DNA of 43,062 nucleotides, taken from a virus (Duplodnaviria > Heunggongvirae > Uroviricota > Caudoviricetes). The notes beneath the pieces are model-generated. The model was not told the origin of the DNA and ran no database searches. It worked only from the letters and a program-made list of their open reading frames with translations. Positions 35,833 through 36,842 of the stretch are shown here, piece by piece (the stretch's first letter is position 1; every line of letters starts with the position of its first letter). The position numbers and the translations under genes are program-made. The DNA is taken from the IMG/VR virus record IMGVR_UViG_2663763326_000007, one strand, 5' to 3'.

Positions 35833-36842
35833 TTCAGTTCAAATTTCCAGGCCAGCCGCTGCTGGCATGCAACTTTCCCCTAACACAAAAACACCTTTAC
35901 ACAGTGAATATTTTTTTGCCCCTCACTACAAATTATTTTTTAAAAACACATTGACCATTACAAATACAAATTGTAAAGTCACTTTCATCAACAACGCTTA
36001 CCCAGCGGCAGTTGTTCAGAAACACGTTCTGACAGCCGGAAAGACGGCACCAAATTTTGCGCGTCGGCGCCAACACGGTGACAGAGGGAAAGACTTCACC
36101 GGCATATGGCACATGTGTCGAAGCGGTCTGGATGGAAGCGGAGCCTTAACGCGTTGTCTCCATAGCAGGTAGCCGGAATGTGCAAGCCACAGCCAGGTAT
36201 GAGCGATTGATTCACCATCAAGGCGATACGGTGTGACCACCAGGGAAGAGTCCTGGCTACAACACGAGAGCGCACTTCATCGACTCAACTTTGAGCTTTG
36301 TCGTTAAATTTTGAAATGGCGGAGTGCGCTCCCGGTTGTGGTGAACAGGTGTTTAACGGGAACTCCCTGCCCGTTACCCGGTTCGATTCCGGGCGCCCAT
36401 CATCAATTTGCTGTGTTTAGTCTTTGCCCAGTCCGCACGATGGGCCATTTTTTCACACAGCCAGGTTTTATCGCTGTGCCTGAGTCCCCAACAGGAGAGG
36501 CCAAACCCGCAGCGTGACACCAGGGAAAGACCGGAGGAAGTACCACGCCTGACCAGCGTTGACCATGAGCCTGACCAGCTCAAAACAGGAAAGACCAGCC
36601 CGGGCCTGACCAGCCCTGTACGGTCGTAATGGAAACATAACGACGCCGGAAACGTAACCGGCACCCTTTAGATAGCAAAAGACCCGCACAAGGCGGGCCA
36701 GTTACCCCGAACGGCGACCAAACCATTCGGATTTATCACAAGTGACCAAACTTGTGATGAGGAAAGACCAACGACACTGACGCTATGGAAGCTGATCAAT
36801 ATTCGCTGATCGGCTCTGAGTATACATTACCAAGGAGTCGCT

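Follow-up and report, generated by a model that had tools for sequence, protein, structure and literature searches.

Probable nested RNA genes in the non-coding early-left leader of an Escherichia coli lambdoid prophage

The window analysed here is the whole of a 43,062-nucleotide (nt) viral stretch, IMG/VR record IMGVR_UViG_2663763326_000007, and the subject of this report is the leader of its early-left operon, a 1-kb segment between the repressor gene and the first early-left gene (positions 35833 to 36842). The window is a lambdoid prophage of the Rac/Gifsy-like type, with near-identical copies in 448 complete Escherichia coli genomes, many of them ST131, and the prophage insertion point adjoins the leuZ-cysT-glyW tRNA genes. 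Its helix-turn-helix repressor gene (35404-35832, plus strand) opposes Cro/YdaS-like and CII/YdaT-like genes on the minus strand, and the plus-strand genes 3' of the segment encode a 106-amino-acid (aa) protein, a 738-aa exonuclease-family protein, a Gp157/Gam-like protein, an xis-like protein and an integrase; the replication genes do not belong to this operon and are placed in the other one. It is this flanking layout that identifies the segment as the early-left leader, in agreement with a preliminary description of the same DNA. That description also called the segment GC-rich, which is true of 36000-36750 (54-56%, compared with 36-46% in the flanks) and not of the first ~170 nt, which consist of AT-rich promoter and operator DNA.

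No convincing open reading frame (ORF) had been seen in the segment, and none has come to light. Mechanical ORFs reach 121 aa, none of them matches any PHROG family, and the RefSeq annotation places no gene here in any of the 448 genomes. A small minus-strand protein was considered for ORF 36096-36275, which coincides with the conserved RNA described below, and was rejected: the nucleotides are kept, and the reading frame switches between homologues. A decayed N-like gene, also proposed earlier, does not fit either, because the same non-coding layout is found in relatives whose first-gene protein is only ~55% identical (relatives are here the fifty loci that were gathered by means of the 106-aa first-gene protein). 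The nearest deposited phage is 'Stenotrophomonas' phage BUCT708, which is ~71% identical across the leader; a megablast comparison of 13 kb of the prophage with the phage collection gave no match, and in a distant blastn search against phages the entire leader was found only in BUCT708 and BUCT709.

From 5' to 3', the segment comprises the promoter and operators, a conserved leader, a cargo slot, an RprA-like seed with its terminator, and an array of orphan translation-initiation modules, with a convergent small RNA (sRNA) gene on the opposite strand (Table 1). By cargo slot we mean the space between the conserved 5' leader and the next module, the content of which varies in relatives: it may be empty, or hold a long hairpin, closed-stem RNAs or a tRNA-like element.

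Table 1. Features of the early-left leader and of the early-gene modules that share its repeats
Feature	Position	Strand	Basis or remark
pL-type early-left promoter, predicted, TTGACC-17-TAAAGT	35951-35979	+	only sigma-70-like site in 35300-37300
Conserved 5' leader	35986-36098	+	sequence conservation from predicted +1
157-nt core RNA: P1, P2, P4a, P5, two likely pseudoknots	36100-36256	+	covariation, 29 homologues
Long-range hairpin P6, ACAAC-GAGAGCGCACU ... AGUGCGCUC-GUUGU around a small hairpin	36259-36339	+	inverted repeat, fold
Degenerate tRNA-like stub (T-arm 36377-36393)	36318-36401	+	Rfam tRNA-Sec, 19.3 bits, E = 0.8
RprA-3'-like module: seed UUGCUGUGUUUAGUCUUUGCCC and intrinsic terminator	36405-36453	+	alignment, blastn, Rfam
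Orphan translation-initiation module array	36516-36620	+	GGAAAGACC at 36524 and 36588, three hairpins
IsrB-type antisense sRNA gene, ends approximate	~36677-36812	-	Rfam isrB in relatives, compensatory changes
sRNA -10 box TATACT (TATAAT in relatives)	36824-36819	-	
sRNA first stem GAUCAG.../...UUGGUC		-	precedes the unpaired stretch
sRNA unpaired GGUCUUUCCUC	complement of 36759-36769	-	
sRNA hairpin H2, loop (U)UUGGUC	36735-36758	-	TCACAAGT repeat of the preliminary description
sRNA hairpin H3, loop UUUGGUCG	36707-36730	-	
sRNA terminator (CCCGC hairpin)	36681-36699	-	terminator called on minus strand
Shine-Dalgarno AAGGAG and ATG of the 106-aa gene	36832-36845	+	
First early-left gene, 106 aa	ORF 36843-37163	+	phrog_2479, function not known
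Early-gene modules	37184 (+), 40359 (+), 34525 (-), 32105 (-)		hairpin and GAGGAAAGACCAAUG
Early-gene module extents	37177-37196 (+), 40352-40372 (+), 34552-34513 (-), 32129-32093 (-)		

The most conserved part of the leader, which the preliminary description did not single out, is a 157-nt RNA (the core) that consists of five covarying helices and two likely pseudoknots. Folding and covariance analysis across homologues, which had been proposed as a check, gives a covariation score of 0.232 for this RNA, compared with 0.107 for shuffled alignments (0 of 500 reach the observed value) and 0.03-0.06 with slid partners. In the set of 29 distinct sequences, the structure model pairs in 94.5% of cells and 11 pairs show compensatory changes. 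Helix P1 has six base pairs, at one of which a switch from A-U to G-C splits the sequences 12 versus 16; P2 is extended, and P5 is capped by a GAAGAG loop. One of the likely pseudoknots is invariant (GCACAU:AUGUGC), and the other (CACC:GGUG) shows one C-G to A-U switch. The core also contains an invariant 19-mer at 36168-36186, GGUAGCCGGAAUGUGCAAG as RNA and GGTAGCCGGAATGTGCAAG as searched. The G-U pairs fix the plus strand as that of the RNA, as does the orientation of the core, which is that of every neighbouring tRNA. Covariance model R1 finds a single copy in the window, at 136.6 bits.

Copies of the ~170-nt core occur in otherwise unrelated phages (SPN1S, Tyrion, SopranoGao, SJ46, D6, PAT1 and Klebsiella phages), mostly in unannotated intergenic DNA, and also in mEp460, TL-2011b, Stx2c phages and P1. 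The exact 19-mer is present in more than 120 IMG/VR contigs among the matches listed and in 24 species-representative genomes, all of them Enterobacterales except two metagenome-assembled genomes that are probably mis-binned. The core region is found in 686 of 5426 complete E. coli genomes (about 13%), with 218 of the places on plasmids, and is never annotated. Phage P1 is among the best-annotated phages, yet the conserved structured RNA has been overlooked there between trnI and ban, in the C1-controlled ban operon (AF234173 70704-70872; 2502-2675 of our locus L126). Model R1 gives this copy 134.8 bits; the record lists 534 features and does not include it, and a P1 transcriptome preprint makes no mention of it.

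Against the 4227 models of Rfam 15 (gathering score or E <= 10), only chance-level overlaps of 36100-36256 were obtained, and 11 homologous core loci, including those of P1 and SPN1S, returned tRNAs only. Outside the core, the Rfam scan, which had also been suggested beforehand, gives isrB on the minus strand at 15.2 bits, RprA at 37.4 bits and tRNA-Sec at 19.3 bits. In the full-text literature, the invariant sequence was found only as unrelated primer matches, and the search gave no description of the core. As a family the core appears to be new; phage-borne structured non-coding RNAs are known as a kind.

About 45 of 125 core loci have either a tRNA-Ile2 (CAU) gene ~15 nt upstream or a tRNA-Arg(UCU) gene 10-75 nt downstream, and the core always shares the strand of the adjacent tRNA; in the remaining loci, about 80, tRNAs are missing from the surrounding 1.2 kb. 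In a few copies a promoter-like site is positioned such that transcription would begin at helix P1, and in some a terminator-like hairpin comes right after P5; most copies show neither. A promoter directly upstream that would make most cores free-standing genes was considered and rejected, as strong consensus matches were present in few loci only. Similarly, when naive ORFs within 2.5 kb of the 125 loci were clustered in search of a consistent protein partner, no steady neighbour emerged, and the clusters are context groups only, such as terminase/portal or immunity regions. The reading of the core that the evidence supports best is a phage RNA complete in itself, acting in trans and carried along with rare-codon tRNA genes. 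Five covarying helices, together with 19 bases that do not vary from genus to genus, make it almost certain that such an RNA has a specific partner molecule.

Next to the core lies hairpin P6, whose inverted repeat of 12 nt (36265-36276 and 36323-36334, 92% complementary) is present in the minimum-free-energy fold; relatives have analogous closed stems after the core or in the same slot. The tRNA-like stub, which also follows the core, contains the T-arm motif of the preliminary description (GGTTCGATTCC at 36380-36390, between CCCGG and CCGGG, the sole such match in the window). A real tRNA or tmRNA at this place was rejected, as ARAGORN finds 0 genes and the tRNA-Sec match of Table 1 is the only one in Rfam. 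The stub is missing from BUCT708, and in loci L151 and L152 its slot is occupied by a better tRNA-like element (Rfam tRNA, 35.5 bits). The element of L151 (2053-2178) is 126 nt long, has a large insertion and reaches the Rfam tRNA threshold. A second tRNA-like element occupies the cargo slot of L178, and closed-stem RNAs of the type ACAAUCAAAGAGCGC...GCGCUCUUUUUGAUUGUGGUG are further cargo in this set of leaders (L151, L178 and L144); apart from the tRNA match of L151, none of these RNAs is in Rfam. Since the slot is so variable in relatives, we regard the core, the hairpin and the stub as the cargo of a hot spot.

An RprA-like terminator closes the leader, a feature missed in the preliminary description. 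Counted by eye, about 43/50 positions of the module, those of the terminator loop among them, agree with the end of the rprA gene as annotated in E. coli, and alignment with the annotated gene shows that both the conserved RprA 3' seed UUGCUGUGUGUAGUCUUUGCC and the terminator are present. The terminator stem occupies 36426-36445 and the U-run 36448-36453, and a terminator-like site was called there. In a blastn search the corresponding stretch of a relative matches annotated rprA, and the module is found in most relatives, including those that have no core. In vivo, natural processing of RprA yields an active form that consists of its last 47 nt (PMC9262595). The seed, the terminator and the Hfq-type 3' end (hairpin plus U-run) are thus common to host and phage, whereas the 5' hairpins and the Rcs-controlled promoter of the host gene are absent from the phage module, which instead lies under the phage early promoter, behind up to ~420 nt of other RNA.

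Downstream of the terminator are the repeats that first drew attention to the segment. Three exact copies of GCCTGACCAGC lie on the plus strand at 36547, 36569 and 36604, each one position beyond the place first given (36546, 36568, 36603), and further variants of the GACCAG type are likewise present, GACCAR occurring seven times on this strand within 36551-36771. With one mismatch or fewer, GCCTGACCAGC occurs five times in the window (0.55 expected; 0/100 shuffles reach five), and the remaining two copies (32119 and 34542) are on the minus strand, where each reads in the direction of an early gene transcribed leftward. The 8-mer GGAAAGAC is found 12 times (1.2 expected), with five copies at 36038-36768. 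As RNA, each of the three plus-strand copies forms a hairpin of the type NNGC-CUGACCA-GCNN (36545-36559, 36566-36582 and 36602-36616), in which the loop is constant and the stems differ (ACGC/GCGU, GAGC/GCUC and GGGC/GCCC). A CUGACCA-loop hairpin followed after ~14 nt by GAGGAAAGACCAAUG also stands before real early genes of both operons, always in mRNA sense (Table 1).

On this evidence, the leader holds orphan copies of a translation-initiation module common to these genes, and GGAAAGACC is part of the ribosome-binding module of early genes on both operons. Across 47 related loci, GGAAAGAC occurs 295 times compared with 9 expected (about 30-fold), with 101 copies before an ORF start and 194 orphan copies, mostly in leaders; the order, loops and spacing of the orphan modules are kept in relatives with ~55% identity in the first-gene protein. 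The constant loops, varying stems and mRNA-sense recurrence point to RNA rather than double-stranded DNA sites.

On the minus strand, opposite the 3' part of the leader, is a gene that we predict to be a longer variant of the IsrB family. The palindromes of the preliminary description, whose relation to such a gene had been missed, belong to this sRNA: the inverted repeat, ATCACAAGT and ACTTGTGAT at 36735-36743 and 36750-36758 (9/9 complementary, 6-nt spacer), is hairpin H2, and the CCCGC-N5-GCGGG hairpin at 36681-36699 is followed by a T-run when read on the minus strand. The Rfam model RF01386 (isrB, gathering score 35) scores 36.1 bits at the orthologous minus-strand place in relative L146 and 33.1 in L151 and L166, and the window copy aligns along its length with 14 relatives. 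In the minus-strand alignment of 15 relatives, 28 pairs are predicted, of which 15 show compensatory changes; several G-U pairs favour the minus strand, since the opposite strand would have A-C mismatches in their place. In its location, beside recE/sbcA-like early-left genes, on the opposite strand and with a Rho-independent terminator, the gene agrees with IsrB. Salmonella IsrB-1 and IsrB-2 adjoin the recE-like sbcA of Gifsy-2 and Gifsy-1, respectively, on the opposite strand, are 88/94 nt long (PMC2330248), and have been detected in cells carrying Gifsy prophages (PMC2330248; bioRxiv 10.1101/787010). Common to both are the early-left place by a recE-like exonuclease operon and a hairpin with loop CUUUGGUCG followed by the Rho-independent terminator; the window RNA is longer (about 135 nt versus 88/94 nt) and has an extra hairpin and the unpaired GGUCUUUCCUC.

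Within the unpaired stretch, GGUCUUUCCU is invariant among relatives, and the stretch as a whole (21 nt) is able to pair, over 15-19 bases without interruption, with four early-gene initiation regions. The duplexes, at 37194 (+), 32095 (-), 34515 (-) and 40370 (+), have energies of -25 to -32.5 kcal/mol, compared with a median of -12 over 51 genes; these values refer to the unpaired 21-nt segment only, as whole-sRNA energies are uninformative. The sequences of the predicted sRNA-target pairing are GGUCUUUCCUC in the sRNA and GAGGAAAGACC. IsrB has been known as an sRNA since 2008, no function for it is reported in the literature examined, and the present layout offers a concrete hypothesis for its role.

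At the 5' end, the operator-like half-site ATTACAAA overlaps the promoter (35957) and recurs at 35346 and 35365 in the cro/repressor intergenic region; in all there are 8 copies in the window, with 2.1 expected, and on this basis the early-left promoter is probably repressor-controlled. The promoter and operator sequences differ among aligned relatives, and all stop 7-10 nt before the same leader start. The conserved leader, CAUCAAC(N)2CGC...GUUGUUCAGAA, is kept from the predicted +1 onwards in every relative of the operon. From the combination of differing promoters and the same leader, we conclude that the leader is a module kept behind heteroimmune promoters. Possible stems in it are AACAAC/GUUGUU (35990-36016) and UCAGAA/UUCUGA (36016-36032), and two hairpins with a GAAAGA loop fold at 36035-36048 and 36084-36097. 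The first stem (AACNNC/GUUGUU) shows one-sided changes only and no compensatory pairs among relatives, so structure in this stem is not demonstrated. Leader positions 35992-36007 share 16 identical nt, CAACGCTTACCCAGCG, with HK022 coding DNA that lies between cro and O (NC_002166 29637-29652; E = 0.002 in a 12-kb search), probably by chance. The 30-nt unit CUGACAGCCGGAAAGACGGCACCAAAUUUU (36029-36058) is 5' of the core in the window and 3' of the RprA-like terminator in L145 and L149, and this shifted place suggests recombination between repeated modules.

Taken together, the segment is probably a non-coding leader of a repressor-controlled early-left operon with nested RNA genes, rather than a decayed gene or an array of DNA repeats. 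We count its anatomy as established and infer from the sequence how it would work. Upon loss of repressor, transcription would begin near 35986, and most polymerases would stop at 36448-36453, releasing an RNA of ~470 nt. Cleavage at the tRNA-like stub or by RNase E would then yield two products: the structured RNA, and a fragment of ~50 nt that would bind Hfq, mimic processed RprA, act on RprA targets and arise only upon firing of the early promoter. Transcripts that read through would contain the orphan modules, followed by the exonuclease, Gam-like, xis and int genes. The minus-strand sRNA, which is fully complementary to the leader, would be made in the lysogen, like Salmonella IsrB; its GGUCUUUCCUC and UUGGUC loops could pair with the ribosome-binding modules of early genes in both operons, four or more in number, and keep them untranslated, thus silencing leaky early expression. 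On induction, the excess of leader RNA, with its several decoy sites, would titrate the sRNA.

Two known systems are instructive in this respect. The P1 ban operon (with a dicF-like region and three tRNAs) and the Qin dicB operon (with DicF) are likewise repressor-controlled early transcripts in which processed non-coding RNAs are ahead of protein genes, and the P1 ban leader holds the same 157-nt RNA; in the present case, by contrast, the cargo has the conserved 5' leader on one side and the RprA-like terminator on the other, and is combined with a convergent sRNA. StxS is a short, terminated pR' transcript of Stx phages that serves as an Hfq-dependent sRNA on rpoS. It is likewise an early-terminated phage leader transcript doubling as a regulatory sRNA tied to RpoS control, with the difference that its promoter is the late, constitutive pR' and here the promoter is the repressed pL.

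Several points weigh against the reading of the segment as a leader with nested RNA genes. The RprA-like module is below the gathering score of RF00034 everywhere (37.4 bits in the window, 42.3 and 50.2 in relatives; gathering score 70), because the 5' hairpins are absent. Promoter-like sites stand directly upstream of only a minority of cores, which means that the core may often sit in longer transcripts. The small hairpins are individually weak (-3 to -8 kcal/mol). On the minus strand, the window copy of the sRNA reaches only 15.2 bits with Rfam isrB, and its complementarity to the modules arises in part because it is antisense to one of them. The Salmonella IsrB RNAs are shorter and, by the Rfam consensus, do not have the anti-ribosome-binding-site stretch, so their documented expression supports only the existence and orientation of the gene. 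Both transcription starts are predicted, as are processing and terminator strength, and the weak point is that an efficient terminator would leave the expression of the exonuclease and int genes unexplained.

This last point bears on the earlier proposal of a nut- or put-like antitermination element, in which structured RNA was the right category and the nut and put assignments were not. The put RNA of HK022 comprises two stem-loops in ~70 nt and suppresses terminators in cis via the zinc-binding domain of the RNA polymerase beta' subunit. In common with put and with lambda nut, the segment has a conserved RNA-coding sequence right after pL and terminators before the early genes; it differs from them in having no put similarity, boxA, N-like protein or 5' stem covariation. 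No match to boxA (CGCUCUUA) with one mismatch or fewer was found on the plus strand of 35833-36842. The first gene was rejected as N-like, as its product is acidic, has no Arg-rich N terminus, falls in phrog_2479 and gives no Pfam match. Homology to put was rejected as well, since blastn-short against the HK022 immunity region gave chance-level matches only, with none at putL or putR. By these comparisons, the leader would not be a member of the nut or put families. We nevertheless consider it possible, if rather unlikely, that the leader is mainly a cis-acting processive antitermination element, either put-like or composed of nut-like sites for an as yet unidentified protein, such that the leader from +1 and/or the constant-loop hairpins modify RNA polymerase to pass the RprA-type terminator into exo, gam, xis and int. 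The GAAAGA and GAAGAG loops, which we take to resemble the loops of lambda boxB, would fit, as would the presence of an intrinsic terminator between promoter and first gene here and in most relatives, a second plus-strand-facing hairpin with a short U-rich tract in some relatives (read by eye), and the lack of an N-like gene. The conservation of the leader from +1 behind heteroimmune promoters, the place of putL in HK022 (PMC9378689), points the same way. Opposed to this are the missing putL/putR similarity and boxA, the weak fold of the first leader stem with its lack of compensatory changes, and the occurrence of the constant-loop hairpins in the ribosome-binding regions of ordinary early genes, which is not expected of nut sites. 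Such antitermination would be compatible with a leader that carries nested RNA genes.

Other explanations concern individual parts. The repeats after the terminator might be relics, that is, linkers between genes that recombination has removed while shuffling the cargo, leaving orphans that have no RNA function. The presence of the same modules before real genes, the widely varying cargo slot, the displaced 30-nt unit and the absence of ~185 nt of the repeat region from locus L135 would all agree with this, but the conserved order, loops and spacing of the orphans at ~55% first-gene protein identity, the constancy of loops over varying stems, and one orphan module that is invariant in 15/15 aligned relatives and lies inside the conserved minus-strand sRNA make it improbable. 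That the repeats are double-stranded DNA sites, such as iterons or other protein-binding arrays for replication, partition or a regulator, had also been suggested, and three identical 11-mers within 70 bp do give this impression. The spacing is irregular (22 and 35 bp), no two copies share the stem of their hairpin, those outside the leader all read in mRNA sense and immediately precede start codons, and the replication genes are in the other operon, so we consider this idea to have very little chance of being correct. For the core, it is conceivable though doubtful that it acts in cis as a leader or processing scaffold for the accompanying tRNAs or messages (RNase P/RNase E cleavage, stability), which would account for its co-orientation with any adjacent tRNA (about 45/125 loci), its embedding in the early operon leaders of phage P1 and the window, and the scarcity of copies with their own promoter-like site. 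On the other side, about 80/125 copies have no tRNA within 1.2 kb, identity of a 19-mer across genera and pseudoknots are unexpected of a processing spacer, and some copies have a promoter-like site at one end and a terminator-like hairpin at the other.

Beyond the leader itself, we propose tentatively, and with rather less than even confidence, two further readings: that the core represents an undescribed class of compact pseudoknotted phage RNAs, and that IsrB-family sRNAs are trans-acting immunity factors that act against ribosome-binding sites. If so, the core class would combine riboswitch- or ribozyme-grade conservation with horizontal spread among unrelated enterobacterial phages, P1 included, and it could function in tRNA biology, with a host factor or in anti-defence. 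IsrB-family sRNAs would silence a set of early genes via their shared initiation module, with the pL leader as a sponge on induction. Apart from these two readings, the phage has taken over the active 3' portion of RprA, a regulator of its host, which now lies under an early promoter. The arrangement suggests that other lambdoid prophages may likewise have hot spots of RNA cargo in the 'empty' leaders between their repressor and early-left genes.

Some further observations were made in the window and its relatives. The exact 12-nt direct repeat CGCTATGGAAGC is found at 36781-36792 and 36839-36850; the second copy includes the start codon of the 106-aa gene, and the first opens an out-of-frame 48-aa ORF that has no nearby Shine-Dalgarno sequence. 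The replicative helicase gene is split by ISEc52 in some host strains (L179 2049-4744, E. coli Ecol_656), and because of this insertion that copy of the prophage is probably defective; the window's own helicase gene (32134-33576) is intact. An immI module of the P1/P7 type is located at 30288-30485 on the minus strand (C4 antisense RNA 75 bits, isrK 80 bits, a1/b1 targets 53 bits). Downstream of it is an ORF6N antirepressor-like gene (ORF 29448-30284, minus strand), and therefore the prophage joins a cI/cro-type switch with RNA-controlled anti-immunity. Finally, spacers in annotated E. coli CRISPR arrays match the leader at 36521-36564 and 36742-36774 (loci L207 and L206), and thus relatives of this prophage were targeted in exactly this non-coding leader.

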